A stretch of DNA of 62,975 nucleotides, filler included, from Kipferlia bialata (lineage: Eukaryota): assembly GCA_003568945.1 (NCBI GenBank). It is 4 parts of 4 records of this genome, joined end to end, with 100 filler letters (N's around TTAATTAATTAA, not from the genome) between each part and the next. Parts side by side here need not be neighbours in the genome. Positions count along the whole stretch, not along the records: positions 31,313 to 50,567 come from BDIP01000435.1; 3 more parts are not named here. The stretch is one strand, 5' to 3'. Of this stretch, positions 15,164-49,351 are shown one piece after another. The stretch's first letter is position 1; each line of letters begins with the position of its first letter. A program made the translations under genes and the position numbers. Under the pieces are notes generated by a model. It was not told where the DNA came from, ran no database searches, and saw only the letters and a program-made list of their open reading frames with translations.

Positions 15164-15194
<31 letters not shown>

Positions 15195-16183: not shown

Positions 16184-16217
<34 letters not shown>

Positions 16218-17209
16218 TTGGCCTTGTACAGAGCACCCAGTTGCCTAGATAAGGCGTAGCGAGAGAGACAGAGAGACAGTACCTCTCTTTCCCCATTGCC
16301 ATGAGTGGCAGACACAGACAGTCTGGTACACATATAGCAATACATTCCTATCTCTCTAATAGTATATATAGTATACTTATACTCTTATACATTATTACCT
16401 CTCCTTGCCCATAGCCATGAGTGGCAGACACAGACAGTCAGGGCACTTGGATCTGTGGGTGTTGTGGGACAGGAAGAGACTGGGTTAGAGTACATATATA
16501 TATAATAGTATATATATATTAGTATAGACAGAGACAGGGAGAGAGAGAGAGAGAGAAAGGGCACTTGGATCTGTGGGTGTTGTGGGACAGGAAGAGACTT
16601 GGGTGAGAGGGAATCAGAACCATACATATATACATATATATACATATAGTATATAGTATAGAGAGAGGGAAAGGGAGAGGGAGAGGGAGACAGGAAGAGA
16701 CTGGGGTAAGAGGGTGTATGTCATCAAAATAGCAATATTAGAAACACAATATGGGTGTAGGTACAAACACACCTCTGGATGGCGTGCTGGAGAAGGTCTC
16801 TCTCTCTCTCCCTCTCCTTCTCTGCGGAGTCTCTCTCTCTCTCCCCCTCACATGGGGAGAGGGATGTGAGCAGAAGGGTGTAGAAGGCGTCGGGGTTGGC
16901 ACTGATCAATCTGGAGTTAGCACTGTAAATTAACAATACCCATAATGAAACATATATATACATACTGTGAATTGGCGGATATCAACCTGGCATTAGTACT
17001 GTATATACATTTACACTCACATATATAGTATCTGTACACATACACGTATATATACTCATACCTCGAAATGGTATCCTTGGCTGCCTTCTTCAAGTCAGAT
17101 CCTGCCTCACTCACTCTCTCTCTATCCCTCTGCTTCTTGCGTAGGGAGGGTGGAAGGGAGAGAGACAGAGGAGAGGTCACCTGGAAGTGAGTGCATAAAG
17201 CGTCTAGGA

Positions 17210-17240
<31 letters not shown>

Positions 17241-17276
17241 AGGTCACCTGGCTGTGAGTGCATAAAGGGATTAGGA

Positions 17277-17307
<31 letters not shown>

Positions 17308-19111
17308 AGGTCACCTGGCAGTGAGGGTACAAAGGGTCTAGAGAGGGAGAGAGAGAGAGAGAGAGAGTACCTCGAGATTAGCAAGGAGACCCAGGAGCAA
17401 TACACTTGCACTAGGAATGTGACCGCCAGCCTTCCTATCAATTCCTGAATGGTCAAGTCCTGGTTGGTCAAGGACTGACCCAAAGAAGCGCCTTGCTACT
17501 CCCGCTACGCCGTCTAAGGCAGATACTATCCTGGCACTTTCTCTCTCACTCTCCTTCCCTGCACTCTCTCCACTTATCTCTCTCTCTCTCTCCTCCTTTG
17601 AAGCAGAGGGAGAGAGGGAGAGGAAGGAGTGGTTGGGAAGAGCCATTGTGTCGGAGAGAGAGAGGGAGAGAGAGTCGAGGAGACTCGGAGCGTTGGACTT
17701 CTCAGCAGTTTGCCTCTCTCCCACTACCCCCTTACATACAAACACTGTCTGTCTCTCCAGTCCGACACTGGTGCAGAGGGAGAGAGAGAGCATGTGCCCC
17801 CTTTCAACCACCTTACAGGCATCCACTGAGACAGAGAGGTACCTCAGCCCACACCCAAGTGCCCTGACACATGCGTCTCTCTCTCCCCCTCTCCCTCTGC
17901 AAGAACTGAACTGCGAGGGTGAGTATATATGTAGCTCTCTGCCACCAGAGGGTAGTGCAACCACCACTGCCACAATGCCAGTCTCCTTGCCCAGTGCCGC
18001 ACATGCCACTCTCTCTCTCTCTCTCTCTCCCTCAATGAGAGTGGTGAGTAGCAGAGAAGTGTGTCCGAAAGGTGCCTCTCCAACACCACTTGAGGGTGTA
18101 GACGGAGAGACTATATGTGACAAGAGGGACTGCCGCACAAGCTGGCAAGAGCCTCTCTCAGTGGTAGAGAGGGACACTACGCCATGATGCGATGCACCCA
18201 CATGAGACGCTCCAGACGATTCAAACGCTCTAGAGGTAGGAAGTGCGTGGTGATAGCCCTGGTTCAGAGACCGGAATGCACATCTACCCGAGTCACAGAG
18301 AGAGGGAGAGAGAGAGATTACAGTGTGGCCCAGAGTTGGGGTGCCAACAGTTAGCAGAGTCTCCCTCTCCCTCTCTTTCTCCCCTGCCTTCCCCTTAACA
18401 GGGTGAGAGTGGGGGTAGGGGGAGAGTCTCTCCAGGATGAGTCTCTCTCTCTCCCTGCCTCCGCACAGAGGGGGTAGGCCTCTGAAGGTAGAGAGTCTAG
18501 AGACAGAGAGAGATACACCCTCTCTCTCTCTCCCTCTGGCTGTAGTAACACTCACTCTTAGGAGAGATAGTGCAATAGAGGCACCCAAACCCTCCTCGCC
18601 ACTCTCTCTGTTTTGGAGAAGGCAGGCAATGTCCAGAGTACTCTCTCCCTCTCCCTCTCCCTCTGCCTCACCATTTGTGCACCCCACTACCACTGTTGAG
18701 CATAGTGTACCACTACTGACTGGACCGTCCAGCTGGACAGGGGCAGACTGAGGGTCAGACCCAAATGTAATATAGATAGAGGTAAGTATATATATATATA
18801 TATATAATACTACTACACTATATATTGACCAGCTGGACAGGTGCAGACTGACAATGAGAAACATATACACTCTCACACACATACATAATGTATTACTCAC
18901 CTCCCACTTCTTGAGCACTCTGGCGGACTGGTGAATGGACCCACAGATACCACCCACACTGTCAGAAAGATCAAAGGACACGATGTGCATAGAACCCCTC
19001 ATCATCGCGTAGTTTTGGTCCTTCATGTGCTCTCCAGGCACATATCTCAGTCCCAGTAGGAGTGGGAGTGTGGGGTGGAAGAATAGGGAGTCAGGGTGGA
19101 TACCCAGTGCC
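1836..19111 (-). CDS. RAV1: Rav1/DMXL (rabconnectin-3A, RAVE V-ATPase assembly subunit)-like protein; many exons, 5' end truncated by the contig end
   Basis: Spliced exons at about 15.4-16.5 kb give CLPLMAMGKERQLGALYKANDQGKLGSFLTD..VAASKNAYVLLGKGEWERAAAWFMLAG, matching the Rav1p_C signature (FYLAMKKK..LWGLF..AALKNAFSLLGKQRFE.AAAFFLLAG). C-terminal WD-like exons (LLVGSSKGDIAVY, TSICFNTAGSVLCIGG) end GGVLIGSATGVIYALM* with TGA at 1838-1836. That the whole span is one gene is inferred, not proven. Confidence 0.75.
2824..3060 (-). repeat. Tandem array of about four 60-65 bp units: (CT)n-ACACCCTTATT-acceptor plus the first ~30 nt of an exon (DVPGSASRPI)
   Basis: ATGGGACGGGAGGCACTGCCAGGGACATCCTGCAATAAGGGTGTAG at about 2825, 2888 and 2951, degenerate copy at about 3015. 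Confidence 0.9.
5802..5830 (-). other. tRNA-like 3' fragment (Gly/Asp-like) with B-box, inside intron 5779-5839
   Basis: Minus strand reads CGGGAGGCCCGGGTTCAATTCC, matching the typical tRNA-Gly(GCC) variable-loop/T-arm; no 5' half. Confidence 0.6.
5969..6009 (+). other. tRNA-like 3' fragment (Leu-like acceptor) ending in CCA, inside an intron
   Basis: CCGGG-TACGATT-CCGGT-TCCAACC-A-CCA: T-arm register, 7-nt acceptor strand, discriminator, CCA; the T-stem has mismatches. Confidence 0.5.
6329..6400 (-). repeat. Coding 21-bp tandem repeat (SMSNLHG x3-4) in a Rav1 exon
   Basis: ORF 6250..6630 reads AMSNLHGSMTNLHGSMSNLHGSMHGS. Confidence 0.85.
7352..7379 (+). other. tRNA-like 3' fragment (Leu-like) with a perfect B-box, inside intron 7334-7397
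   Basis: GCGGG-TTCGATT-CCCAC-TGGCACC-A. Confidence 0.65.
7944..7991 (+). other. tRNA-like 3' half (Lys/Ile-like) with B-box, inside intron 7939-8038
   Basis: GTTAGAC...ATGGG-TTCAAGC-CCCAC-CGGGAGC-G. Confidence 0.65.
8234..8275 (-). other. tRNA-Glu(TTC)-like 3' half inside intron 8213-8280
   Basis: Minus strand TTTCAC-TCTGG-TGTT-CGGGAG-TTCAAAT-CCCGT-CACCGAT-A: anticodon loop through acceptor strand in roughly tRNA-Glu spacing. Confidence 0.6.
8753..8782 (+). other. tRNA-like 3' fragment with a perfect B-box, inside intron 8743-8801
   Basis: GGGCGTGGG-TTCGAAT-CCCGG-CAGTGTA-A. Confidence 0.65.
9497..9860 (-). repeat. Four ~97-bp units, each an acceptor plus the first ~45 nt of an exon (VNLGVSVNDETALV); only the 9497-9540 copy continues as the exon
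   Basis: GCAGTCTCATCATTGAC...GGTTGACCT at about 9497, 9595, 9693 and 9790, with ATCGCGTAG-containing spacers. Confidence 0.9.
11489..13055 (-). repeat. Array of phase-1 symmetric mini-exons encoding GGFGMRNVPQP(Q/K)P..DPMAAFG, plus partial copies
   Basis: Copies with both AG and GT at about 11490-11537, 11685-11738, 11892-11960, 12149-12210 and 12741-12809; a related exon at 13005-13055; truncated copies at about 12007, 12305, 12450 and 12655. Confidence 0.85.
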
Positions 19112-19180
19112 CTAGTATTAGAGAGAGAGAGAGGGAGAGAGAGAGAGGGAGTCAGGGTGGATGCCAAGGGTCCTAGTATG

Positions 19181-19222
<42 letters not shown>

Positions 19223-19276
19223 GGTGGATGCCAAGGGCCCTAGTATGAGATAGATAGAGAGAGAGAGAGAGAGAGA

Positions 19277-19376
19277 NNNNNNNNNNNNNNNNNNNNNNNN
19301 NNNNNNNNNNNNNNNNNNNNTTAATTAATTAANNNNNNNNNNNNNNNNNNNNNNNNNNNNNNNNNNNNNNNNNNNN
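19277..19376. other. Artificial contig linker
   Basis: 100 nt: N-run + TTAATTAATTAA (stops in all six frames) + N-run. Confidence 0.97.
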
Positions 19377-31212: not shown

Positions 31213-31312
31213 NNNNNNNNNNNNNNNNNNNNNNNNNNNNNNNNNNNNNNNNNNNNTTAATTAATTAANNNNNNNNNNNNNNNNNNNNNNNNNNNNNNNN
31301 NNNNNNNNNNNN
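31213..31312. other. Artificial contig linker
   Basis: 100 nt N/TTAATTAATTAA/N. Confidence 0.97.
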
Positions 31313-31800
31313 CTAAGGGAGGCGTTCTGGAAGTACTCTCCCTCAATCACTGCTGGGGGTGAGGAATAGAGTGGCAATGATTACTCGACATATCGGTGCA
31401 TACTATGCTCTAGCATGCCGCCAATGAGAGAGAATACGCCATATAGACATACTACATATGGACTGAGGGTACAAATGCAGAGATGAAGTGTTTGATACTA
31501 TGTCGGAAGGGGTCAGAAACAGAGTAAGATGCAGTGTATTTGTAATTCGACATTGCATTGATTGCAGCCTAGGCTCAACACCCTACCCCACCTATTACTG
31601 CCGCGCCCTGTCTCTTGCGCCATGCCTGTCCCTTGTGCCGAGTCACCGGGGCCTCCCATCTGCGCCGGGTAGGTACCCTCAGCCTCACAGGGCGGGTGCG
31701 CGGGGAGGGGTTGGTGCTCATTCTGTCTGCCCCCTCTTCTCCTTAATGCACTGGATACACAGCTACGGCGCTATATGTGTTCAAGGGTCCCTAAGACAGC
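31313..31800 (-). CDS. Possible exons of an unidentified gene running off the contig end
   Basis: An open exon ending ..RQGAAVI|G joins in phase to AVIEGEYFQNASL after a ctcacccccag acceptor; no recognisable domain. Confidence 0.3.
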
Positions 31801-32487
31801 TCTGAAGGAACAGGAAGAGAGCAGAGTTGATATCAATCCATTACAAAAACACTTGAGGGTGTTGTACATGAGGTATGTCTCCCTTATGCGACACACTGGA
31901 TATGCCGAATCAAGACGGGCATCAGGAGGAAGATGAACACACTAGTTCTATTTATGAGGCTTAAATCTCCTATTTGAGAATGATGTGGTCGATGAATCTA
32001 CTCAGGATCATCGGATCATGTGTATCAAGACATGGTGTCTTGTGTTATGTACATACTATATCTATATGGATATACTATACTCATACAGCACACGTGCTAT
32101 TGCTATATACCATGTGTGTCTCTAGCAGTGACGTAGTGCCCTGGAAGAGCTGTATAATCACAGTAGCCGCGACTTGGTATTTGTTTCGGGAAGGCTACTC
32201 ACATTGTGAGTCACAACTTAATAGCCTGCCGGAGTAAAGATTCAAAGAGAGTAGCTTCATCGGAGACTTCAATGTGGGGTTCTCTACTTGTCAGTCAGCT
32301 GCAGTGAATGGACCAGAGTAGTGAATCTACCCTCTGATCCCAGTCTAATGCAGTGTGACTCAACTTTTCAGAAGACCATTACTGTCGTCGATGTCTCTCC
32401 ATCAATCTTCCTATTCCACTCCCTAATCGACTCCAAGTCTCCTGTTACACATTACATATCTAACTGCTGATATCATACACAACAATA

Positions 32488-35400
32488 TCACTGCGAGAAC
32501 CCACATGCGAGCCCCGTGTCCGTGTCCCTGACGACCATGCCCCTGCCTAGGTGTCTCTGACCCTTGACCAAGGGGAGAGAGAGCATCCCCCGCACCACTG
32601 CCTCTGTGCCGTAGAAGGGGTGGGCACACACTGCATCTACAGTGACACCATGCCCCAGACACAGCACTACCTGGCTGTCTATCAGCATGGCAGGGGGTCT
32701 GGGGGCAGAGGGGGCAGGCCTCTCCAGACAGAAGGAGTACACTCTACACTCTGAACCACAGGGTACGGTAGATAGACCATCCACATCGATGGGGAAAACC
32801 CATGGACCCTCGACACCCTCCTTGACCGGGTGGTAGGGCGTGATCCTCAACCCATCTGGGAGCACCACAAGGGTCTGGGTGTCTGAGCACTCGGTGGCCA
32901 GGACGTGCTCGACCTGTGGTAAGGGGGTGACCGTGGGTACATGTACTGTATACACTAGGGCCTGACGAGAACTACACGACGTTCACACCAACCTTAGCCG
33001 TCCCTCCCCCAGGCACCATGACCTCTGTCCCAGCCACCACCTCTTGTGCCATGCAGACAGACCCATTGCCTAGGGTCACCCTAGACTCCTGGTGCACACA
33101 CGGACCGTCACTGGGGTGGGTACTACTCACTAACAACGTCTAATATAACACCGCATGTCAACATGCCGATCATCACCTACAGTTGAAGTCTGACGGTCTG
33201 ATGTATGCGGGTCTGGACTGGGTCGCCGATGAAGACGCCGCAGTGCAGTCATAACAATTGTCCGAATCATCTGACTCCTCATCGTATCTTGTCACCCTGG
33301 GCTTGGGTGGTGGCATCGTGTTGAAGGTAAGGTTGTGGTCCTTAACAAGACCCCTAAAGAGACTGCCACCGTATGACGCCAGGGATCCGTCCTTGTGGTT
33401 GTTGCATACCTGAGAGGGAGAGGCATATTGTATACTTAGTGGTGTATCTATACCGACAATAGACAACAGTGAAGTATTGATGGTGTAATAGCCACGATAA
33501 CGACCCAGGGTATACACCTGTCATACTGGTGCTGTATGACATCCCCCTTCCTACCTCCCTCTGGTGACTGAGGCATATGGACAACAAGTAGTGCAGGCCC
33601 CACTTGTATAGGTACTGTCCTGTGAATGCCATGGCCATCTGACTAGACCAGTCCTCATAGAGCTTGGATAGCCAAACAGAGGGTCCAGACTCCTCAGCCT
33701 CGGATGGAGTGGCCTCTGCGATAGATGCCAATGCAGCCACAATGTCTGTGACCTCCTCTGGCACCCCTGCAGTGACGAATGGGGCAGACATGGTCTCAAG
33801 GACGGTGGTGCTAAGGGTGTGACGGATGTAGTGCCACAGGTGGGATGGAGAGGGAGACACAGGAGTAGAGGGAGGCTTGTCAGTAGAGGGGGTGCACGGA
33901 ACCGTGATGACTGGGGGTGAGACGTTAGAGACCTCACAGTATATATACAAGGTCATTTACGCCACACCATATGTACACAACAACCTTTATATATCACACA
34001 CATCCACATAGACATATATACACATTCACTCAACCTGTGGCTGGCTCACAGGGCAGTCTGTACTTCAGGCACATGCCCTCCCCAATGGCCACAGGCATCG
34101 ATCTCTCCTGCCCACACAGGACAGGGCCTAGCATGAGGTCACCTCCCTCGCACCCACAAAGAGTCACATCGGTGGCAACGGTGCAGAGGGCAGCTAGGGG
34201 TAAGTGATGGTCCTACAACAACACATATTCACATACAAATATCGCCACACCTGCCGCTGCATGGACAAAGGCAGTGCCCACGAATGAGCTGTCTGGGATG
34301 TATGTGTACTGCCCTGACCCCCTTACGGCAAGGTCGGTGAGGAGGCTGGAGTCTACGCTGTAGAACCCAAAGGCAAAGGTGTCTATGCGGTAGCCCTGAG
34401 GTAGGTAACAACAATGAGATGTTGTATATATATATGGTTACATATAGTAGGGTACTCTCCCACACATCCACACCCACACACCCACACCTTGCTCTCTGGG
34501 TGTGTGTCGTGGTACTCTGTCAGCACATCATCTGCGGCGTCATCCTCATTGGGCTCCCCATCGGTCAGGACACATATCTGTCTGGGGTCAGCCGTACACT
34601 AGGGCGTGTGTGGAGAGCATGTCTCACAAGTTTGTATCCACCCACCTGACCACATCCCTTGGCCCTTTGAGACAGAGGTCAAGGGCTGCCTTCAGTCCAT
34701 CCCCCAGGGCAGTCGTCCCATAGGTGTCGAGGGTCTCTGGAGAGTGAGGAAGAGGGGATAGGCACTCGTGTATACAATCAAATGCCTTTCTTCCTATACT
34801 CTTGAATATCCATTGCTGTATTTGTTGTCACATAGACTACAATATCCCATCTCACGGCAATCCTAACTACACTGGGAGAGGTATCACGACATGTAATGGA
34901 AGGGGGCCGTACCTATCATCTCTGTTGCCTTCTCCCTCCCCTCCTTGGTAGCCCTGGTTGGTGTCAGTGCTACAGTCACCCGTGTGCCAAAACCAACGAC
35001 AGAAACGTAGTCTAGTGGGTCAGAGAGGGAAGTTCCATACTATACACTATTCATACACTTAACATATACTATATAACCACCGTACCATCCTCCCCGAGGA
35101 AGTGGGTATACGCCTTGGCACCAAGCTTCACAATGTCGAGAAGGTTGTTGGAAAACTCCTGGGGTTAAGAATAGAATCGAAATAGGAATAGCACTGCTGG
35201 AGAGCTTATTGAATACATGGACGCTTGTCATGAGTTAGTATGTCACAGAGGATGAGAGAGAAACACCATAATACTATCTCAGAGATGTGTACTTATACAA
35301 GGAGGCCACACTTCCCTCAATAATAGTCCGTATAGTGATCACAATCTACGTGTAAGGTATCCAATTCCACAGTAATACCCACATGAATTAGCTCACCCCA

Positions 35401-35696
35401 CCTCCATCTCGTTGTTGGCGTTTCTCTTGCTGGCCCTGTCACTCATGCTGCCTAGGGGTGAGGGCTGGAGTGCATATATACTCACATATTGTAAGATATC
35501 TCATACACACATATGTACCACTCCTCCACCTGATGTGTCCAGCAGTAACACACAGTGCACAGGCTGTCTGGTCTGGGGGTGAGGGAGAGATAGGGGGAAG
35601 AGTCTGGCGGGGGGGGGGGGGGGGAGAGGGGGGGAGAGAGAGAGAGAGAGAGAGAGAAGGAGAGAGAAAGAACACACTACATACCTCCACTTTCAT
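32488..35696 (-). CDS. vWA - Vwaint - Vint (Hint/intein-like autoprocessing) protein
   Basis: MKVE|TRQPVHCVLLLDTSG|SM (MIDAS DxSxS), GTTALGDGL, TFGF..YTYIPDSSFVGTAFVHA (vWA); KWGLHYLLS..H.REVCNNHKD..YGGSLF..PPPKP (Vwaint); DGPCVHQESRVTL, LRITPYHPV, VYSFCL, LGHG..HPFYGT (Vint). Confidence 0.92.
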
Positions 35697-36381
35697 TTCA
35701 CACTCAATTCATACCTTCTCTCCCTCCAACCTCTCTCTCCCTACTCCTCGCCGTAACATTCTCCCTCTTACATCAGATCGATGTGAGGGTGAGAGGGAGA
35801 GCGAGAGCGAGAGCGAGAGTGAGAGTGGGTCTGAGTCCTATGAGAGTGTGGAGGATGGAAACAGCAGTGACACTATGGTATGTATATTGGTAGCTCATGT
35901 ACTAGTTCCCTGGAATCAAATGCCTACATTAGGCAGGTATCTGTATCTCTGGTGGTCTGCCGCCCTTCTCTCTCGTGTGTCCCTGTACCTCCTCTCTCTC
36001 TCTCTCTCTCTCGTGTCTGCCTTCCACTTCATTCCCGAGTGTGCCGCGATATTTGGCTCTCTCTTTCCTCCCCCTCCCCCTTCTCTTCTCTCTCCTCCAT
36101 ACATATATACATATATATATACATATACACATATATACATACATATGTTCAGAACATGGCCCATTATTATGATTCAGGTGTCCTCTTCCACTCTATCTCA
36201 GTGGGTAAACGTATCTATATATATGTGTGTGTGTGTGTGTGTGTGCATTTATGTGTATTTCTTCTCTCTTCCTCCCCTTCCACTCATGCACAACTATACT
36301 TATCTCTCTGTATATATGGGTATATATATATACATGTATACACACGTGAACTCTTCTCTCTCCCCTTCCACTCATGTTTAG

Positions 36382-39300
36382 GACATACCAACCAGAGTAG
36401 TGATCCACGACTCATCCCGGACATGCCCCATACCCCTTGACACACCAGTAGGGATGCTCAGGGTGAGGCATAAATGTGCATGTATATGGTGTGCACTGCA
36501 TATCCATAGTAATCTAATCCCTTATTAACACCAGTATCTAGTTGAACCGGGACACATCGGCCCCCTCACCCTCTCAGCCTCCTTCGTCTCTGACACCCCT
36601 GACATAGGTGAAGATAGGGAGAGAGAGAGAAAAGGAATACTGGCAGACACAGTATACCCCTCTCTCTCCCCTATAGTCCTTGCTCGAATACCCGGCATGG
36701 AGGTAGACCCTGAGACAGCTATCCTAGGGTCCTATCCAGGTAGAGGTACAACTACACCCCTGGTGTCCGTGCTCTCTCAGTGCAAGAGTGCACTCCTGCA
36801 GATAGGGAGGGGAAGGGTGGAGCAGGTGGTGTCACTTGGAAGTGTACCTCAGGGTAGGGGCTGTGGGGTGAGTACACGGGGAGGGATACACACCCTACTC
36901 TCCATCTTACCGACTACCGGTGTGGAGGGAGAGGAGGAGACACCACTAGCCACTGCCTATGTAGTGGGTATGGTAGAGGGGAGGCCAGCGTGGAAGAGAG
37001 TGGGCTTAGACATGACACAGCCTGTGACTGCTCTCCTATCTGAGTGCAGAGCACATGTAGAGAAAGAGAGTCTCAGTGCATGTATCCTCATGGGGAGGGA
37101 CAGTGACACCGGGTCCCTAATAGTAGGTGTGGGAAGGGGGGACTCCTACTCCCACCTGCTCTACCTCGACACTTCCAACCCCACTCCTACTCTCTCCGTG
37201 TACTGCAAGCTGTCATCACCTGTCAAGGCGTCTGATGTGTCTGCTCTATCCTGCTGTGGCAGTGTGGCTACACTATCGCCTAAGGAGACTTCTCCATCCA
37301 TCTCCGTATGTCTAGGTAATGGTGCAGTGCATGCATCTAAGGTTGAGGGCACAGGACACAGAGCATGTAGTGTCGGTACTGTGTCCTACATGCCCCTTGC
37401 ACCAGAAGAGAGAGTGGGGGAGAGAGAAAAGAATGGCGTAGGTCTCCAAGTTTCAGTAAGAGACTCTCTCTGTGTCCCACTGCCGCTGGTTGCTGTGAGT
37501 TACGCGGTTGTAGGGACCTCCCTCATCTACACAGACACAGACTCATCTCTCAAGTTGGTGGACCTCTCTCCTCTGCTAGAGTGCAGTCTGCTTCCAGTTG
37601 TTACAGAGACTGACGTGCTGCCTAGCAATGGACCTCTACCCTGGGTCAACGACGGCACATCCTCTCCGCCCTTCCAACCCACTCTCACATGCGCCCTAGA
37701 CAACAGACTAGTGGCTGTCTCTTTGGTGCAAGGGTCTCTTGACGTCGTCGGACTGGCGGAGTTTGACTATGCCACGTGTGAATGGAGTGTGACATGTACT
37801 CCAGACCCCGGTGCTGCCACTCTACCTCTGATCAGCAAGGATACAGTTGTGGTGGGAGACTGCATGTACGCAACATACCAGGGGCGACTGCTATCCGTGC
37901 CCCTCTCAGTCGAGTCAGACTCTGCCACTTTGCACCTTATCTCCCTCACAGGACAGCCTCTGTACTGTAAGGACAGCCAGTTCATTGTGCTACCCACATC
38001 TACTGGTATGAGGCTTCAGCGTGTCCTCCCGGAGGTGTCACTTGCAGCGTACTCACTTGTGACAACTACCGGTGACAGGCAGGCCATTGGAGAGTGTTAC
38101 GGGTCAAGGTGTGTGACTGGTATAGTAGCTAGTGAGGACGGATGCTACAGTGTGAGAGGGTGTGTGTGGAGAGAGATGGAGGGGAAGAATGAGGAACAGG
38201 AAGTGGCAACCAACAGTGAAACAGTGGTCCACTCTCTCGACTCCATCGTGCCACTTGCTCTCTCTCCCACTGCTAAGCATGTGAATGTGGAAAGAGTGAA
38301 TGTCGGTGACGCACTCAGCAGACAGAGCGTGGAAGGATGGGAGTTCACCAAGTGCACCTTCACCAATCTCTCTTTCGCCACTCTTAGTAAGTGCAGGTTC
38401 ATTGAGTGTGACCTCAACCACTGTGACATACAGGGCACATCACTGCACAACTGTGTCTTCACCCAGTGTGACATGAGTGTGATCACAGTGACAACAGGAG
38501 CGTCACTTCTGAACGTGACACTCAAGGAGTGTGACACGACACACATGAGACTCAAGGGGTGCTCTCTCAGTGGGGACAACGTCGGACTCCCACTGGTAGA
38601 CAAGACCAACAGGGACTTGACTTCCGAGGACTTTGATGGACATGACGTGACTATTTGGGACATGACTGGTAGCAGAGTGTGCGGCATGGATCTGAGAGGG
38701 GTAGAGGGTCTGACTGTGGAGCACATTGGCTCCCTCACATCTATCAACCAGTGCAACATGTCTGGGTTGTCAATTGGAGGTCTTGATCTCTCAGACACTG
38801 ATGCCACTGGAAGTGACTTCTCCAGTTGCGATTTGACTACATGTGTTGTCACTGGTGCCACTCTAACTGAGTGTGACTTCAGCAACTCTAAGCTTGTCAG
38901 CGTCAAGGGTCTCACCCTAGAGCAGCTTGGTAGCGTAAGTAGTCTGATGGGTGCAGTTATAAGCGAGGTAGACATGCATGGGTGGGACATGCAGCACGTG
39001 GATTTGAGAGGGGTTGATCTCAGTGGGTGTGACATGAGAGGGTCTAAGGTGAGGGATACCCTGGTGGAGGGAACAACCCTACCTATGGGAGACCAGGCAC
39101 CCACAATGACACCCCCACCCAAGGCTTGGTTTGAGGTAGCCCAGGGAGTTACTGAGACGGTGACAACCACTAGTCTTCCCCATCAGGGTACCTACAACAA
39201 CCCAGTCACACTAATGCTACCAAGTGTGGAGAGCACTTGGAGACTTACAGCCACCTCAAGCACAGGTCAAGGCATGGTTGTCTCTTCCACAACACCTGGA

Positions 39301-39489
39301 AGCGGAGAGGGACCCTTCTGGCCACACAGTGGGGATGCAACTGTAACTCGGTCTGGAACTACCATCACAATATCTGGCCCTCGTTGTACTACATCCCACC
39401 CATGTGTAGAGGGTCAAGAGGCACATGTCACCTTGTATGTGTATGCATATCCCAATTACCAAGGCTCTTTGACAATAGCTTCACAATAG
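36382..39489 (+). CDS. Large protein with Cys-rich pentapeptide repeats (about 38340-39080) and an unassigned N-terminal region
   Basis: 930-aa ORF with FTKCTFTNL, FIECDLNHCDI, ATGSDFSSCDLTTC, ATLTECDFSNSKL. Two small upstream exons (36382-36462, 36535-36607) splice in frame. The initiator may be the ATG before the donor at 35875-35877. Confidence 0.85.
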
Positions 39490-39754
39490 TGGATTCCACT
39501 ACTGTGTACCGGTTCTCTGGGACATCTAGCTCCATAATAATGTATATTCAATGCGTCGCTGTCATAAGAGTGTAGGTGGCAAGAATAGACGAACATTACA
39601 ACGTAGTCAAGAGAATACAATACACACTATCAATAGTACAACAATTCTGGAATCGTTTGATTTGATGAGAAAACCTTACTAAGAACTATCAGGCTAATAA
39701 AGGAGTCTATTTCTAAAACCAAACAGCCGCAGCGTAGCTACATAGTGGCATAGT

Positions 39755-42170
39755 TTAGAAGTTGTCTACACGGAGCTCAAAGTATGCCTAAGCGTGAGAT
39801 GGGGGCTTCCGTAGAGTGAAGCATCCGTGGTGAATGAAACGCTGAACATACCTGAGGGTGGCTGCATGTGGCACAAGTGGTGGGCGCCTTCTTGCCATGG
39901 TGGATGTGGCCACACACACGGCACTCCCAGTACACTTCCTATTCATTAGATAGAGGGGAGAGAGAGAGAGAGGGAGACTATGTGGCAACAGTTACAGCAT
40001 CCCAAATTCACCTCCTAGCCTGCCGTACCACATACAACCACAAATGCAGCAAATGAGATAGCGATCAGGAGAGAGAGAGAATTGTGGATGTGGCAGCAGA
40101 GACACCGTTATCGCAATAACTCCTGAGGGGTAAATATACTTCTCAGTTCTGTAATGAGACAATACTAATGAAACAATCAGTGTAGTATACCTCCTCCTTC
40201 TCAAACACTGACCCAGACTCGACATTGTCTAGGAGGGCCTTGAAGCGGCGTTCATGGCTCTCCTCACACTGATGTTAGGCCTGATCGTGTAATCAGGTGG
40301 GAATGATGTACACTGTATCCTTCATCGATTTTTACTCAGAGAGATATTACCTTTGCAATCAGTCGGTAGGCCACTGCGATCTCTCTGAAGCCTAGTGTAA
40401 GAGCCACACGACATTTGGAGACAAAGACATGTAAGCACTATAAAAGCAGTAAGTACCACGGGGAAAGAGATAATATTACCTCATTCGTCCATACTATAAA
40501 GGGAGCGAAAAGGGAAGAAAACAACGAGAGAGATCTGAGGAGAGTCAGTCATGTTTTGTCACACACCTTCCTCCTGGGCTGTCTGTGCGAACTGGGGATA
40601 GAGAGTGGTCCACTCCTGGTACTCACCACCTGGGGCGAGTACAGTATATACACATACATATATGTAGAATATGTGTGTACTTGAAATACTGGCTCCAAAT
40701 ATAGCATAGCACTACTGTTAATGATACGAGAGGAAACACATACCTGCTGCCTCTCTGAGATTAGCTACTGTGTATCAGTAACAGTGTCAGTATCAGTATC
40801 AAAACATACAGTAACTATATATAGTTATATATAATTTGTATAATTACTACATAAAATTACTATATAGGTACCTGCTGCCTCTCTGAGGTTGGCTGCTGTG
40901 TCTCCAACGACACCTGCCCTGTAGGTGGCAGTGATCTAGGGTAAGTACAGAAATAGATGGACAAGAGTAGGTGCAAGTTACTATATATATGGAAGTAATC
41001 AAGGGGAGAGTTGGACACTTGTCACTACTAAGCAGATAGTCAAAGATATAGGGAGATAGACTGGACCTCCGTGTCTGCCCCTGACTCTAGGAACCTGAAG
41101 AACCTCTTGGCATGCCACTTCTCCTAGGGGTTAAGAGGAATGGAAAGTGTATATAAGACATAAACACCATTAGGTATCTGAAGAACCTCTTGGCGTGCCA
41201 CTTCTCCTGAGATATATATATATATGTGTGTGTGTGTGTCTAATAGTCATTGTCTATAGAGGGTGAACAGCAAGGAAGAACATCAGTGATAGAGAGGTTA
41301 CATCACGTAGTCTCGAGCCAAGAGCCGTCATTACCGAAGGAGTACATTGTGGTGATACATATATAGAATCATATATAGTATCATTGTACTGTGATACCTG
41401 GTCCGCTGTCTTCTGGAAGATCGCGCTGATCTGCTCGTAGCCCTCCTTCTTGGCAACCTTGGCAAACATCTCATACCTAGGGTGAGGAGTGTATTACTGC
41501 TATATATCTATAGAGAGAGAGAGAGTCCAAATGTATAACTAAGGAGTCCCTCCTTCTTGGCAACCTTGGCAAACATCTCATACCTATAGTGAGGGTATGA
41601 GTAATACACATAAAGAGATAGAGAGAGAGAGATCTAAGCCAAGGAGTCCCTGCTTCTTGGCAACCTTGGCTAACAGCTCATATCTAGAGTGAGAGGTACA
41701 GAAGTAAGGGATATAGAGCAGGGTTTCCCCCCTTCTCGCATATATCGAGAGTTTCAGCTAACAATACAGCGTAACGACAAAGAGAGACACACCCGCATCA
41801 CCTCACTGTGATGATCAGTGATCATTGATCACACTCAATCACATATATGCGGTGTCCTTTCCTATTGTATATCATACATTACTGCTGTAAGTAGAGATGG
41901 TTACTATGTTGCACTGTACAATCAACAGTTTCAGTATCAGTATCAGTCGGCGTGGAAGGAGGGGGGCACTAACATATTCACTACCTTGACATGTTCACAG
42001 CCTCTATAATACTGGATACTCTTATAGGTAGCATATAGACAACAGGTGACTGACAGAGCATAACCTATCTATCTCTCTCTCTCTTACCTCTGCCTGGCCT
42101 GACACTTCCTGGCAAAGGAGTTCAGCAGGTTGTACTCGGTCTGGGTGCCTGTCACGGACTTGGTGGACAT
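39755..42170 (-). CDS. rbr: Rubrerythrin (di-iron four-helix bundle plus rubredoxin-like domain), 9 exons
   Basis: MSTKSVTGTQTEYNLLNSFA..QARQR|YEMFAKVAKKEGYEQI..|EKWHAKRFF..|GGEYQEWTTLYPQFA..EEG|FREIA..|CEESHERRF..|WECRVCGHIH..CATCSHPQ|AYFELRVDNF*. Confidence 0.95.
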
Positions 42171-43027
42171 TGCTACTGTGTCACGGATACAGTACGCACT
42201 GTAGGGCTGGAGAGACATGCTCCAGGCTGAACAGTTCACAACAAAAACGAGTCCTACACCCTTAGCAAATAGATACCACGTAGTTCCTTCTTCATGCTGG
42301 AGCAGTCACATATCCTGTCATCTGCGCATTGAGAGGGTTAAGTGGTAATACAAAGGTAATATATCAATCAACTCTGAGAGGCTGACATTGATGGTCAGAA
42401 TACTGGGTGTATCGTATCTTTCGTGAATTAGAGCGACTCGTACTCTCTTGTGTAGAAGTAAACGTATATACAATATTAAGTTACTGCTTGAATATACAAT
42501 ATGTAATATTTGTATGCGTCCTCACAATTTCTCCCCTATCCCCCCCCCTCCTCTCCCTGTTCGCGGGCTATCACTTCTGGATGCACTGAGCGTACTTCCG
42601 TATCATACTCCCCTCCTGGACTCTGTACTCAACTTCCCCCTACAATGCACACCTTGTGAGATGTACTATAACACTAGGAATCCTAGTCTAGGATGCCCCC
42701 CTCCAGTAGTATATATATATATATACTAATATGAATATCTGTATATAGACATCTATGAATACCTAATACTTGGATGCCCCCCTCCAGTAGGAGAGAGTTT
42801 GCCGTCGAGCTGTCTACGTGCACAGTGCAATGGCCAATGTCTATCCTTCACCACCACTGTAACGCTAACTGGATATCCATAAGAGAGCATGTCATGATGG
42901 TAGGTATGGATCCGAGATGTAGAACAAGAGCATTGTAAATTTGAGTGTATTCTCCGTCCTGCGCATCCACTGATGGTAGGGCAGTTCGATAATCTAAGAG
43001 GATCATGATCTTGAGAATACTGGGTAC

Positions 43028-44374
43028 ATGCCTGAGGGCACACCAGGGGTGTATGTTATGCTGGACGTCTCTGGTCTGGAAGAGTGTGGTACCGTGAGGG
43101 TAGAGAGTGTGTGGGTGGACTATGACACGTGGGACGAGGACAGTGACGACGAAGAGGACGAGAAGATTCTATGTGGATGCATTGGTAGTCTGGCACTGGA
43201 AGCTAAGGTCCGTTCCTGTCCGGAGTGCTATACCAGCAAGCCGTCTCTCTCTGTCTACGACATAGCCACCGACAAGTCCTCCAGCGTGTCGTACCACCAC
43301 TGTAAGAGGTACATCACTGAATCTGGCTCCATTGCAGAGCTCCCTGGACAAGCGAGTCTCTTTCTCGAGTGTCCGTCCCTGAGAGATCCCGAGGGTTGCT
43401 GCCTTGAAAGGGAGTTTGTGTTGTTTGACACCACATGTGTGGTATTGTATAACCCAGAGACAGAGACATGGACCCAGGACAGCAGGAAAGATGTCGTACT
43501 ACCCCTCTCATTCACCCACACGGTTGAGAACGATGTGCTTCACGTGTTTGCTCCAAACATTCACATGACATACACAATCAGGGGGGGTTGGAGGGAGGAA
43601 GCAGATCCCCCATCTACACTCGGTACTATCCAGCAAGCCAAGGTGATATTGCATATAGTCTCACTCTGCCGCGTGGATACATTGACATTGTATCTTATCA
43701 TACATTGTCAGTGTGAATGCATTGCGATATTACAACCCCCATTCCTGTGCCTAACGGTCAGCGTTTTGGTCGCTCTAGTCCACAGTATCCGATATTTCCT
43801 CTCTATACGCAATATCACCCATCCATTGGGACAACAAGCCGTGTTACATGAGTAACTGACGCGTAGTGTCTAAATATAGTTAAGGGTAGCTCTCAACTGC
43901 TGTCTCATTATTAGAGCTTTGACCGCCTCATCCTCCTCTTCTGTGAGAGTGGAGTACACATCTATGACTGTATTAGTGGGGACTACGCCAGGCTAGCAGA
44001 GACTAGCTCACGGGTATAGCAATAATGCACGCTCTCTTGTCATGATCCGGCCTAATTCCCTAGTTTACTATATCATAACCACTGGTAAATGCACATCGTA
44101 TCTGATTTACCAGGCATCGAGATTCAGCGGGACTAGGGTGGGGCACAACACGCTGCTGAGCCAGGCCGAGATGGACTGCCCTGACATGCACTACAACCAG
44201 GAGCTGCATCGAGAGATGATGATGGTGGACCACAGCAACTTCACCCCCGCATTGACTGCCCTATGGATGTGCTCACCCTCCACCCTGACCTCCTATACCC
44301 CAGTGCAGAGATGGGGTGGGGGAGGGTGGTGGAGTGGGGGTGTGATGGAGTGGTGTAGAGACCCCGAGTACTAG
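43028..44374 (+). pseudogene. Kelch-like family paralog 1 (3 exons) with a 1-nt frameshift in the last exon
   Basis: YNPETETWTQDSR, HTVENDVLHVF, GTIQQAK|SFDRLILLFCESG shared with paralogs 2 and 3. In the C-run at about 44244-44248 the frame shifts before the conserved RIDxxMDVLTLHPDLLYPSAEMGWG block; this could be a homopolymer error. Confidence 0.6.
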
Positions 44375-44859
44375 GCCTAGTGAGAGTGTCACACACCACA
44401 CACATAGTATGACTCACACTCTTTCCTCGATAACGCTGGCACTATGGCCTCTGGTGTATCGCTGACAGCAACTTGTATATCTGTAGTATAGACTAGGATA
44501 TAGCAGACGCACAAGAATAATTGAGGGAACTATATACATAGAACTATGACCGGTGTGAGTATCTATGTGGCATAGTATTCCTGCAGAGTCGATATGTGAC
44601 TGCAGTCGGATACGTGCATAGAGCAGTAAGAGAAAATATTCTCTTCTTACTGTTAAGAGAATGTGTGAGGGAAATGGCACTAGTATGACCACATAAAGAG
44701 TATTCAATGAGTTCAACTCATGATAGAATACACATTGTTCTGTTCTATTTGGAGCAGATACTTATGATCGACTATCAAGTATTTACCGAGGCATGTTGGG
44801 CGGCCCAAGTTGGGCCCCCGGCTATCGACGGATTAGTATGACTGTATTGTGTGACACTC

Positions 44860-46280
44860 TCAATAGTGCATATAGTCCCTACACCACTCCATCACACGGT
44901 GTGATTCACACCCCCACTCCACCACCCTCCCCCACTCCCTCTCTGCACTGGGATATAGCAGGTCAGGGTTGAGGGTCAGCAATTCCATAGGGAGGTCAAT
45001 ACAACGGGTGAGGTCCTGTATCCAAGGCCTCGAGCCCATCTGGTAAATCTGCTGCCACAAGTCCCGATTCTCTACAGTATGCGGAAGTCTGACTCTAGCG
45101 CTGCTCACCATTGTGTTGGAGCCAACTGATAGGCCTCGGAAATAACACACCTTGGATTGGTAAATGATGGACATAAATAGTGTATCTATAATGTAGATCT
45201 TCCACACACTCATGTATATAGAATGTATAGAGAAGTAAACATGGATCAAAAGTCTACCATACCTCAGAGTTCTTGTCTGCAACCTTAGTGTAGTCTCCGC
45301 TAATGCAATCGTAGAGGTGTGTTCCAGCGGAACCTAAGAGGAGAATGAGACGGTCGAAGCTCTGTGTGTAAGAAGGCTCTCTTTCGAGTAGGGCCCATAC
45401 TCAGTAGGCATAAGAGAAATCTCCCGTATGGTGTATATGAATAGAAATATACCTGGTCTTGCCAGTAAATGCCACCCTATGACAGAATCTCCTGTTACAG
45501 AGCTTGCAGTCACTGTGTATATATACAATCATATGTAGCATGGTGCATGAAATCGTACGCATGTCGGGAAATGTATACCTGAGCTTGGTGGATAGTACCA
45601 ACCGATGAGGGAATCTTCTCTTCCTCCCTAAACCCCCTCTTGATGGTGTATGTCAGGTGCCTACCATCACCAAACACGTGTAGAACGTCGTTCTCGACTG
45701 TGTGTGCAATACGATACCGAACATGGATCCCCTCTCTGCGGTCTAGTGTCCACTGCTCAGTATCTGGGTTGTACATTGTCACCACAGGGGTCCCATCTCT
45801 GAGAGTGAAGAGGACAAACTCTCCGTCAAGGGTACAACTCGCTGGTTCCTGAATCCTAAACCATTCTAGAGCATCCCTCTCTGCCACAGTAACAATACTG
45901 CCCTCGTCACCAATGATCCTCGTGCATCTACGGGACCCACCACTGTACTCCTCTGTGGCTAGATCGTAGAGGTCGAATGTTGGCTTGTGCACAGAACCAA
46001 CTCTCTGCACTTCCAACATAAGACCACACATGCACTCCCGCAGTATCTTTCTCTTCTCCCAGTCGTAGGTGTTACTCACGGCTCTGTCTGCCAGGCGAAC
46101 ACGTTGCACAACCACCCTCCTCTCCCCATCCTCTCTCCCCTCCTGTGAAAGGGCAGAGATGTCCAAGTTTAGTGTCACTACTGCAGCTGTGTCATGTTCC
46201 TCAAAGGGCAGTAGAGTCTCGCGTGCCTCCACCAAGACACACTGATCCCCAGCAGACACCCAGTTCAGCTGGAAGTGAGA
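44860..46280 (-). CDS. Kelch-like family paralog 2 (3 exons); initiator ATG missing at the homologous position
   Basis: SHFQLNW.., YNPDTEQWTLDRR, HTVENDVLHVFGDG, GTIHQAQ|SFDRLILL.., LLTLNPDLLYPSAE; CAG stands where paralog 3 has ATG. Confidence 0.65.
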
Positions 46281-47860
46281 CTGTTCTCTATACTACGTCT
46301 TAGCCTGAGAGTGGCTTTGCATACATGTCTACACAAAGAGATATATGCACTGTCTATATACATATGACAATTGTCACCCAGTCTAGCTGCAAAGTGAGAC
46401 ATATCCATTTCAAGAATTGTTCTGAGCGCTATATACCTCAATATATATTGAGAATGTCAATTAGATACACATACAAAGGGATAGAGATAGAGAGATAGAG
46501 AGGGAGAGAGAGAGAGAGAATGTCCCATCCACCTCAAAAACTCCGGCAAGAAGAGCCACTGGCCAATTCACGGTACATGCCGATATATCAACTGCAGGGA
46601 CACTACCATAGGGTGGCATTGCGATACACGCTACTCAATGTATTTCTGGGTGTGAGAGTGTGAATTGTGCTATTTGTGGAGGGGTGGAGAGCTAGTACGG
46701 GAATTTGTCGGATGTCGGGGGGGGAGGAATTCATAGAGAGAGTGAATGATTATGATTTGGGAGAAGCGGAGAGATACAGAGCATATCTATAGGCATTAGG
46801 CTGAGGTCAAGCTATAGATGTCAGACTAGTGAGAGTAATTTCCAGGTACCATATCAGTGGGTACGTACCTGGATGAGTCTGCCAACCTACAACAGATACA
46901 GGAGTGAAGAAACTGCCTCCTCTAGGGGTAGAGGTGGACTAGTACCTGGGGTCGGGGGAAGGGGAGGGGAGGAAGACTGGGGAGGAAGGTGATATATCAA
47001 TTAGGAGTGAAACCGGAAAGGGTGAAAGAGAGAGGGAGACTAGCCTCTATAGGGAGATGGATAGGAGAGGTATAGGCGAAAAGAAGCGGGGGGGGATTTA
47101 ACGCGAATTGAATGCCAGTGAGCGATGTATCACAACTATATACACAATATGGGAGTGCTACTGATTCTGTATCAGGTATGATTCATGTAGATTGGGAATG
47201 GTGCTGTTACATCACACTCTCTCTTACCCCAAACACAGTACCCAGATATATGATAGTAATCATTTAGAGAAGGAAACCAGTAGCCATCCTGCCTGTAGCA
47301 CTTAAAAGGTGCGTGCACTTACCGCTGATTTGTGGTTAAAGGAAGAGGGACCAGCCAAGTGATCCCGTTTTTGATGAATGGAAAAGGGGTTCTTCTACTC
47401 ACAGAATAGGGAACATCGTACGACCCATATCAACCTTCTATTCGGATTCTGGAGGCGTTGATAAGATTTCCATCACAATTGGGCGTATGTGCTGTTTTTG
47501 CAACCCACACTGTGGGCCACAGATCTCAGAAACTCTGGGAAGAGAGAGAGAAGCAAGGAGTGTTGAAAGAGTGCATTGACCGGAATAGGACTCTAGAGAA
47601 GCGTCTGACTCTCGACTACTACGGGTACGTACTTGGAATATAGTGTGTTATCGCAATGCGATAGTGGCAAAGAGTCTATTCAAGCATCATAATGTGTCTC
47701 TATATGCCTTCCTGCCGCCATCAGGGTCTCTGTCTGTATTGCAGATAGGACTTAGACTGCTCCACAACTGGCAGTTGTCAACTGCCCTAATAGCCCTCTA
47801 CTCACCTCTCGCTCTCTCAGTGATTATATTCGTTTGTAAGCTCCATAGTGCCTGGAAACT

Positions 47861-49351
47861 CTATACCACTCCATCACACCCCCACTCCACCAGCCTTCCC
47901 CACCCCATCTCTGCACTGGGGTAGAGGAGGTCAGGGTGGAGAGTAAGCACATCCATAGACATGTCAATGCGCTGGTCCAGGTCGCCAACGCCACCGTAGT
48001 ACATATCCTCCCACACTCTTTTACCTTCCTCAGTGTCTGGTAGGGTCACCTTAGACGTACTCAACATCCTGTCAGGGCCGACTAACAGTCCTCTAAACTG
48101 GGATGCCTGGAGAGAGTGAGAGATTACAGATATGTGTCAGTGTTGTACACAACTGATATGCTGTTGGGAGGTGTGCCTTTTCTTAGTGTTGTTGTCTGAC
48201 TACTGTCATACTTAACACTAGTACGTATTATACAGAAAGAGTAGGAAGAGGGGTTCTTGTCGAACGTACGGAAGTATCCTTCTCTGCCACCCTGGCGTAG
48301 TCCCCACTAACAGTGGTTATGATATAGTAAACTAGGGAAATAGGCCGGATCATGACAAGAGAGGGTGCATTATTGCTATACCCGTGAGCTAGTCTCTCCT
48401 AGCCGGACGTAGTCCCCGCTAATACAGTCATAGAGGTGTAGTCCACTCTCACAGAAGAGGAGAATGAGACGGTCAAAGCTCTGGGTATGAGATGGCGTTA
48501 GTGTGTATACCAATTGGCTACCGGCCACTCTACGCTCAGTGGGTACCTGACATATAGAGCTTGGAGTAACTGTATGCAATATATATACATATATGTGGGG
48601 GGCATATATGTACATGTACCCATATCCAATAATATACCTGGGCTTGGTGGATAGTACCAACCGATGAGGGAATCTTCTCGTCCTCCCTAAACCCCCTCTT
48701 GATGGTGTATGTAATGTGTCTACCATCACCAAACACGTGTAGAACGTGGCTCTCGACTGTGTATGCGATATCAGACGGAAGACTGAGACCCTTTCTGCTG
48801 TCTAGTGTCCACCTCTTGGTGTCCGGGTTGTACATGGTCACGACAGGGTCCCTGTATGGCTCATATAGGCTATATGAGTGAGTGAAGAGGACAAATTCTC
48901 CAGCAAGGGTACAGCTCTCTGGTGCATCCATTTGTGGCCACTCTAGAGCAATACGCTCTGGTATCCTGACGACGGCGCCGTATTCATCTATGAACCCAGT
49001 GCACCGACAAGGCACCCTATAGCCCTTGTCCTTGGCTGGCTCCGACACAGAGACTATTGGCTGGGACGCACCGTTTGTTACGTCAGCCACCACAACTAGA
49101 CCACCTATGTACTCTCGTAGTGGTCTCTTATACCCCCAAGCACTATCTGGGTCGTGAACATTCCATTCCTTTTTGGCACGGTCAATTACTATTCTCCTAT
49201 CCCCCTGCTCCTGTGAAAGGCCAGACACGTCGAGGTCCAGCGTCATGACAACTGTATACCCATCAGGGGCCAATGCACTCAGAGAATCCGAAGCATCTAC
49301 TCTGACACTATGCTCCCCAAGAGGCATCCACTCCAGCTGGAAGTGAGACAT
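47861..49351 (-). CDS. Kelch-like family paralog 3 (3 exons, apparently intact)
   Basis: MSHFQLEW..YNPDTKRWTLDSR..GTIHQAQ|SFDRLILLFCESGLHLYDCISGDYVRLGETSSR|ASQFRG..LLYPSAEMGWG. Confidence 0.75.

Follow-up and report, generated by a model that had tools for sequence, protein, structure and literature searches.

In the free-living protist Kipferlia bialata, a Giardia relative with 124,912 introns in its genome according to the genome paper (PMC5874029), we found a gene, P3, in which a single exon carries two exon-end/intron-start signatures: one is that of an inverted paralog, P1, and the other is unique. This structure is probably the product of a 112-nt insertion into P3 that was templated from P1, entered through exon homology and was resolved out of register, leaving the old exon end within the intron. 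The window, that is, the whole stretch of DNA analysed (62,975 nt), consists of four scaffolds placed end to end, with spacers (44 N, 12 nt, 44 N) at 19277-19376, 31213-31312 and 50568-50667. One segment, 31313-50567 (19,255 nt), holds three paralogs: P1 on the plus strand, and P2 and P3 on the minus strand. Since P1 lies on the plus strand, the P1 and P3 copies are inverted; they are 4.3 kb apart around P2, while P2 and P3 are in tandem in the same orientation. P1 is the annotated KIPB_002570, exon B of P3 corresponds to KIPB_002571 of K. bialata (100% over the aligned part), and a fourth paralog, P4 (KIPB_005423), is located elsewhere. The features of the locus are as follows:

49529-49443, minus strand: exon A of P3, 87 nt
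49336-48638, minus strand: exon B of P3; its last 120 nt agree with P2 at 113/120 and with P1 at 82/120
48480-48382, minus strand: exon C of P3, 99 nt, the third exon of the gene
48311..48480, minus strand: block shared with P1, made up of exon C (48480-48382) and intron (48381-48311); of this block, exon positions 79-99 and the 71 nt of intron are diagnostic
48268..48310, minus strand: echo and its donor, that is, a 41-nt second end of exon C (48310-48270, exon positions 59-99) with GT at 48269-48268
48107..48269, minus strand: intron segment behind the echo, 163 nt, likely the original intron of P3
48106-47861, minus strand: exon D of P3; its 5' part is 44% identical to P1 and 54% to P2, and its 3' 111 nt agree with P1 at 101/111
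43915-44013, plus strand: exon C of P1, the likely donor; the shared part ends at 44084
44014-44113, plus strand: intron after exon C of P1, complete, 100 nt
45263..45361, minus strand: exon C of P2, the comparison copy, 70/99 to P3 and 69/99 to P1
43967..43970, plus strand: 4-nt word, P1 exon positions 53-56, equal to the last 4 nt of the shared intron (44081-44084)

The gene family itself is a patchwork. A search against 50% representatives returned 19 matches, and all ten that were looked up are K. bialata proteins. When six family sequences were scanned with Pfam, the Kelch models were matched by one and had no match in P1, P3 or P4. P2 and P3 have a second shared block (45496-45846 and 48553-48923), which covers the end of exon B at 113/120 nt and continues into the intron, and P1 and P2 have common sequence after the stop (0/500 shuffles as high). 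Several peculiarities of the gene models were also observed. In the public model KIPB_002571, P3 sequence (the end of exon B, and exon C) is joined to exons B and C of P2, over 48480-48382 to 46268-45263 (minus strand), and exon D of P3 is left out; the model looks like a mis-annotation. Exon D of P1 (44114-44358, plus strand) has a frame break before its conserved end, near a run of C at 44244-44248; KIPB_002570 follows the other frame past this point, and a contig of sequencing run X1 over 44056-44290 shows no gap relative to the window. The last exon of P2 contains a 14-nt fold-back (inverted-repeat) insertion at 44898-44911 (minus strand) that shifts the frame of the final codons and that we take to resemble a snap-back templated insertion. 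Elsewhere on the segment, a 986-codon open frame at 36529-39489 (plus strand) encodes pentapeptide repeats (PF00805, E 5e-23).

The initial annotation had described exon C of P3 and the start of its intron as nearly identical to P1, with strongly diverged upstream exons. Both observations were borne out, and the exon, which had been labelled exon 2, proved to be the third, given the 87-nt exon at 49529-49443. Self-comparison by blastn aligned 43913-44087 (plus strand) with 48482-48308 (minus strand) at 93.7% over 175 nt (E 3e-71). Within this alignment 91/99 nt of exon C (8 differences) and 69/71 nt of the intron start are alike, with the two intron differences at 44031/48364 and 44055/48340, and identity stops at 48311. 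On either side of the block, the agreement between P1 and P3 amounts to 312/561 nt in exon B and 58/132 nt in the 5' part of exon D, and neither the intron before exon C (88/500 shuffles as high) nor the sequence after the stop (367/500) could be aligned. The 3' part of exon D agrees at 101/111 nt; this end is conserved family-wide, as P1 and P2 also agree there at 78/90 nt. A check set in advance concerned whether the identity is uniform along the gene or confined to a discrete tract. The values of 56% in exon B, 92% in exon C, 97% in the intron start and 44% in the 5' part of exon D show a discrete high-identity tract between diverged paralogs, as ectopic gene conversion predicts.

How much of exon C belongs to the tract is a separate matter. 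All of it had been counted as tract, but P4 differs from P3 at only 7/76 nt in this exon, so that exon C is similar across P1, P3 and P4. Because P4 is about as close as P1, the exon part is not diagnostic, and with the three copies about equally alike, no left edge of the tract stands out. At exon C positions 12, 18, 46 and 63, P3 agrees with P2 and not with P1, and these bases suggest that the first part of the exon is P3's own. P3 is P2-like elsewhere as well: the end of its exon B is closer to P2 than to P1, which indicates a P2-like backbone, its intron before exon C is homologous to that of P2 (0/500 shuffles as high), and the 5' part of its exon D agrees with P2 at 73/135 nt. Within the tract, the intron was not significantly younger than the exon (2/71 vs 8/99 differences, Fisher p 0.20).

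Directly after the position where identity with P1 stops, P3 continues with the echo, SGDYARVAEKDTS, which has no stop and no indel, is in the same phase as exon C, and is followed by an intact GT after the same codon. The echo agrees with P1 at 20/20 of its first 20 nt and 28/30 of its first 30 nt and at only 1/11 of its last 11 nt. The corresponding values are 17/20, 24/30 and 1/11 for the working P3 copy, and 15/20, 23/30 and 5/11 for P2. Working P3 differs from P1 at positions 63, 74, 76 and 83, and at all four the echo carries the P1 base. Codon 27 encodes V in the echo, P2 and P4, and L in P1 and the working P3 copy. The last four codons of exon C differ among all four paralogs and the echo; therefore, these codons together with the intron start constitute a signature of each gene, and P3 has two of them, P1's and a unique one. 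Among six contigs retained at 80%, a filter that can drop contigs, the echo end and the intron behind it had no holder besides P3's own contig, the only one that aligned to 48150-48310. The initial annotation had called for a family member whose exon C ends in AEKDTS; the search was run, and none of the 19 family proteins, 16 of which show the motif region, has this ending. The absence of a second holder in these searches fits a recipient that kept its old end while the donor, P1, persists.

The 163-nt segment behind the echo could be aligned neither to the shared 71 nt (398/1000 shuffles as high) nor to the P1 intron (472/1000). Its lack of relation to the shared 71 nt argues that the echo is not a plain tandem duplication. 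Homology with the P2 intron could have proved the segment native; none was found (655/1000 shuffles as high), and it is therefore its uniqueness that points to the segment being the original intron of P3. The second exon end had been proposed as a full-length alternative with its own donor. The in-frame GT agrees with this proposal, whereas no in-frame use was found: one codon past the first donor, read-through meets an in-frame stop, and if the junction's AG served as an acceptor, the result would be a 37-nt mini-exon that is out of frame. Judged by these predicted products, a role of the echo as an alternative 5' splice site or a mutually exclusive exon end was rejected. Run X2 contributed one short contig over 42900-49800 and none over 48150-48560, an outcome that carries no information on splicing.

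We then considered the junction between the shared intron and the echo, for which a micro-homeology (actggtaa/actgttag) had been put forward. This match is largely built into the comparison. The left half of the match is the shared tract itself, the right half matches at 2/4 nt, as is seen at 25% of random positions, and flush microhomology amounts to 0 nt on both sides. The only candidate microhomology is the 4-nt word at 43967..43970, which lies 2 nt out of register with the echo start; a 4-nt match of this kind occurs at about 1% of random position pairs, and this one was chosen after the fact. The log-likelihood of a 112-nt insertion at position x of exon C was -45.3 at x=58 and -42.9 at x=76-78, a gain of 2.4, so that a permuted insert, made by slip-back on P1 or from a small circle, fits a little better; overall, entry positions 58-78 fit about equally. 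Because the first 20 nt of the echo equal P1, two insertion points are possible: either exon position 58/59, with the echo wholly P3's, or near 76-78 with slip-back on P1, in which case those 20 nt would derive from P1 too. It was also observed that the unshared part of the P1 intron, 44085-44113 (plus strand), starts with GT exactly at the end of the tract.

Read data support the junction. In run X1, it lies within a contig of depth 500 that extends over 46527-48340 and has zero differences from the window; X1 is not a long-read run and is possibly the source of the window DNA, and hence not an independent sample. In the contig graph of X1, both copies collapse into one 87-nt piece that matches P3 and has a depth of 518.6. 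The predicted depth of this piece is 525 if both intron differences are real, 718 if one is and 977 if none is. By this arithmetic on how such graphs are simplified, the observed depth fits both differences being real.

Taken together, we propose that the event was triggered by a break or a stalled fork in exon C of P3. A 3' end in this exon would pair with the inverted P1 copy 4.3 kb away through their exon identity of about 90%, and synthesis would pass the P1 donor site and proceed 71 nt into the non-homologous intron of P1. Without homology to anneal to, the end would be rejoined by end joining of the polymerase-theta type or by a template switch, possibly via the 4-nt word. Use of the first donor in splicing would keep the protein length and lengthen the intron from 163 to 275 nt. 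A single event in P3 accounts for both of its signatures; P1 has one complete 100-nt intron and no echo. We infer the transfer direction and the repair pathway, and the event as a whole is read from one strain. Several observations weigh against this reading. Flush microhomology is 0 nt, and use of the 4-nt word would require the loss of 2 further nt; exon C is similar to about the same degree in P1, P3 and P4; and the 163 nt could not be aligned to the P2 intron. At all four differences between working P3 and P1 in positions 59-99 the echo carries the P1 base, which is awkward for the simplest version. With P1 and P3 91% identical where exon D ends, an older conversion that reached further is also conceivable. 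The repertoire of the lineage is compatible with the proposed route. Metamonads lack Ku70/80 and DNA-PKcs, and it has been argued that homologous recombination is their main break repair (PMC8516963); the supplement of the same paper lists PolQ (g1038.t1) and five Rad52 entries for K. bialata as presence only. Replication template switching has also been described (PMC4888836) and is equally compatible as a route to the P3 structure.

The same 112-nt insert, circularly permuted, would arise if a small circle from P1 (positions ~59-99 plus the 71 nt of intron, closed at the 4-nt repeat) had integrated by a single crossover into exon C of P3 near positions 76-78. We consider this unlikely. The 4-nt word does stand at both ends of the segment inside P1 (positions 53 and 167 of 170), the first 20 nt of the echo equal P1 while the working copy differs from P1 at 3/20, and insertion at 76-78 has the slightly better likelihood; reintegration of circular DNA is also the subject of reviews. 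However, the gain is small for a breakpoint picked among 21 positions, slip-back while copying yields the identical sequence, and 112 nt is very short for a circle. Two successive transfers are a distinctly unlikely origin: P3 would have taken the 3' half of P1, from exon C to the stop, and a third paralog would then have provided the stretch that runs from the echo through the 163-nt intron to the start of exon D, with entry via the intron junction and exit in exon D. Consistent with this, P1 and P3 agree at 101/111 nt at the end of exon D and the first 30 nt of the echo are 28/30 like P1. On the other hand, conservation of that end of exon D extends across the family (P1/P2 78/90), the 5' part of exon D of P3 leans to P2 (54% vs 44%) as exon B does, none of the 19 proteins ends exon C like the echo, and the echo and the intron behind it are covered only by P3's own contig, under a filter that can drop contigs.

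The direction would be reversed if P3 had acquired its echo earlier, by whatever process makes echoes in general, and had afterwards acted as donor in a conversion of P1 that covered exon C and 71 nt of intron. The window does contain many echoes for which no paralog is visible (57 repeat pairs, against none in any of 3 shuffles), the other 29 nt of the P1 intron start with GT, and P1, which has a frame break in exon D, may be under relaxed selection. Nevertheless, the tract would have to end at the echo junction to the base, and no relic or decayed exon end was detected in P1's own intron (482/2000 shuffles as high, not significant). In addition, 10 of the last 11 nt of the echo disagree with the working end, yet only 2 of its first 30 disagree with P1, a pattern that decay of a self-copy would not produce; this order of events is improbable. 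Very improbable is an origin by plain tandem duplication of the P3 exon-intron junction followed by decay, or by inverted duplication at the breakpoints of a P1-P3 inversion. Some window echoes do retain 10-48 nt of flanking intron, and P1 and P3 are inverted repeats around P2. Yet the sequence behind the echo is unrelated to that behind the working donor (398/1000), and P2 and P3 lie in tandem in one orientation with a common exon B and its intron; an inversion would separate the P2-like halves of P3 and would by itself make no echo. That a short-read assembly mixed P1 and P3 is hardly conceivable. The contig graph of X1, maybe the source of the window, does collapse the two copies into one 87-nt piece matching P3, but a contig of depth 500 crosses the junction without a difference, the depth of that piece (518.6) fits 525, with both differences real, and not 718 or 977, and the sequence of the echo, like that of the intron behind it, is unique.

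The templated insertion from P1 into P3 has parallels in known systems. In gene conversion both tract ends are homologous; here the right end is non-homologous and P3 has gained 112 nt, so the P1-P3 event works like conversion with one aberrant end. The conversion-tract mechanism of the initial annotation is supported as far as the discrete block, the unrelated 163 nt and an echo end that agrees with P1 at 1/11 nt are concerned; its microhomology argument is not supported in the form given. One-sided invasion, reportedly described by Belmaaza and Chartrand in 1994 and by Puchta in 1998, is said to combine homologous entry with non-homologous exit and to copy donor sequence beyond the homology, reportedly at engineered breaks in mammalian and plant cells. 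P3 is alike in its non-homologous exit and its copied donor intron, of which 69/71 nt beyond the homology agree with P1, and would be alike in its entry, which lies in exon C with positions 58-78 fitting about equally. In the literature searched, no description of one-sided invasion as a source of displaced exon ends in introns was found. Aborted synthesis-dependent strand annealing (SDSA) is similar in that a break end is extended on a homologous template and joined to the other end without annealing; its junctions show microhomology or small insertions, where P3 has 0 nt flush and the 4-nt word at an offset of 2 nt. In C. elegans helq-1 and brc-1 mutants, failed SDSA ends were joined by polymerase theta and the copied stretch was duplicated (PMC8654963). 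The C. elegans events reported there used the sister as template and gave head-to-tail duplications of ~100 bp to 10 kb in repair mutants, whereas P3 involves an inverted paralog as template, an unrelated intron, a 112-nt insert and a wild organism. In its mode of operation, the P1-P3 event resembles one-sided invasion, or SDSA that was aborted and then completed by end joining.

Other routes to repeats at introns fit less well. Intron transfer between paralogs also moves intron sequence by recombination, but in the cases reported it places an intron at an intron-less site (PMC3443670). In all four paralogs, P1 to P4, the same codon is followed by a GT donor, so the intron of P3 was already there; only the 5' 71 nt and the donor moved, and the old donor was kept downstream. 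Tandem duplication and staggered-break repair resemble P3 in that they leave a repeat of exon-end sequence within an intron or next to it, and a succession of breaks has been proposed to lengthen introns (PMC3443670, PMC4202315). A tandem genomic duplication would show a repeat after the second donor, and none was detected (398/1000 shuffles as high). The exon-intron repeats reported in Daphnia measure 4-12 bp and lie at the far end of new introns (PMC4202315), unlike the echoes of the window, which are copies of ~20-70 nt situated 50-240 nt from the working site, and unlike P3, whose spacer is traceable to another gene.

Beyond P3, a scan of the window detected 57 pairs of local direct repeats, and none of 3 block shuffles yielded any; the pairs lie in 389-19275, 40741-41693 and 54183-62427. 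By eye, most are an exon end with its donor, or an acceptor with its exon start, copied within introns. They are often stacked two to four deep, and the nearer copy is usually the closer in sequence. They occur, among others, in a Rav1-like gene (PF12234, E 8e-7) and in a rubrerythrin (PF02915, E 0.0015, below the cut-off). Paralogs had been suggested as the general source of echoes, which is not what the window indicates: most of its echoes are in the Rav1-like gene, the rubrerythrin and other genes without a paralog seen in the window.

The divergence of the echoes was quantified at 48 splice sites, hand-picked from the repeat lists and not a census; echo frames were assigned manually with the help of open frames and a codon score, and the differences at a few sites had already been seen. 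The first count yielded 44 echoes at 36/48 sites, with GT or AG retained in 38/44, and 86 distinct differences, of which 62 were at third positions and 54 synonymous. A synonymous share of 26% would be expected of a copy that evolves neutrally, and one of 41% if silent sites of the working copy drift as well; the excess over 41% had p 5e-5. In a frame-free control, 49/96 mismatch pairs were in phase vs 30 expected (p 0.0003), and third positions changed more whichever of the four bases was considered. When the count was repeated with the splice site as anchor, over 46/48 sites (2 were below 17/24) and with split codons skipped, it gave 107 differences, 70 at third positions and 64 synonymous (p 9e-5 vs 41%, 0.026 vs 50%). 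By scaffold, the synonymous differences were 52/79 on the first, 4/6 in the rubrerythrin and 8/22 on the last, where the excess is absent; the excess is driven by the first scaffold, and sites within one gene are not independent. The clearest coding-type divergence was seen at 9194-9376 (minus strand), in a 71-nt echo whose 9 differences comprise 7 synonymous and 2 conservative ones (M/L, R/K). At 4/16 donor sites and 9/19 acceptor sites, the spacer resembled what lies beyond the echo more closely than any control spacer did, which indicates that some echoes are true tandem copies and many are not. In a search within the window, only the spacer of P3 could be traced to an origin.

Some further features of these introns were observed. 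Small repeated exons at ~11490-13060 (minus strand) code a GGFGMRNVP-type repeat; an echo at 12649 has A, as in other repeats of this type, where the working copy has S. The echo stacks at 4058-4345 and 7494-7728 straddle N gaps, and the near-identical copies flanking these gaps (50/51, 49/49) may be extra echoes or scaffolding overlaps. By eye, arm fragments that we take to be tRNA-like appear in first-scaffold introns at ~5810-5840, 5980-6010, 7350-7390, 7970-8000, 8240-8270 and 8730-8780; ARAGORN called no tRNA gene.

Many echoes and their working copies seem both to have been coding when they drifted apart. Such divergence is what displacement by a diverged copy predicts, and this process may be a general source of echoes; self-duplication that later gained allelic variants by recombination would give the same silent excess. 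For genes without a paralog seen in the window, alleles are the likelier donors. We found no description of the echo pattern in Kipferlia in a literature search that covered few subscription papers, and in the text of the K. bialata genome paper as consulted the string 'duplicat' occurs 0 times (PMC5874029).

The origin of new intron sequence is usually untraceable, as noted in PMC4202315. In P3, the 71 nt of new intron sequence lead back to a nearby gene, and the exon end that was displaced has survived. The P3 event alone is one natural example of a known repair outcome; the repair route is known, and the genome-wide scar is the unusual part. Displacement of the P3 type would be one way in which K. 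bialata introns grow. More broadly, and tentatively, it is possible that K. bialata introns are rebuilt from their ends by recombination between diverged copies, with alleles as the usual donors and P1-to-P3 as a rare case in which the donor is still present. Repair would enter a conserved exon, run into the partner's unrelated intron and rejoin out of register, installing a new splice site and intron end and pushing the old exon end, with its synonymous differences, into the intron. Repeated rounds would stack echoes in age order, and the donor alleles would come from a highly diverse, recombining population. If the synonymous excess holds genome-wide, it would show that recombination between diverged copies lengthens introns and swaps splice sites, and it would point indirectly to recombination between alleles in this free-living Giardia relative. 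If the broader reading is true, a lineage without NHEJ would have a previously undescribed way of lengthening introns and replacing splice sites across its genome, and the echoes would be a fossil record of lost alleles and past sex.
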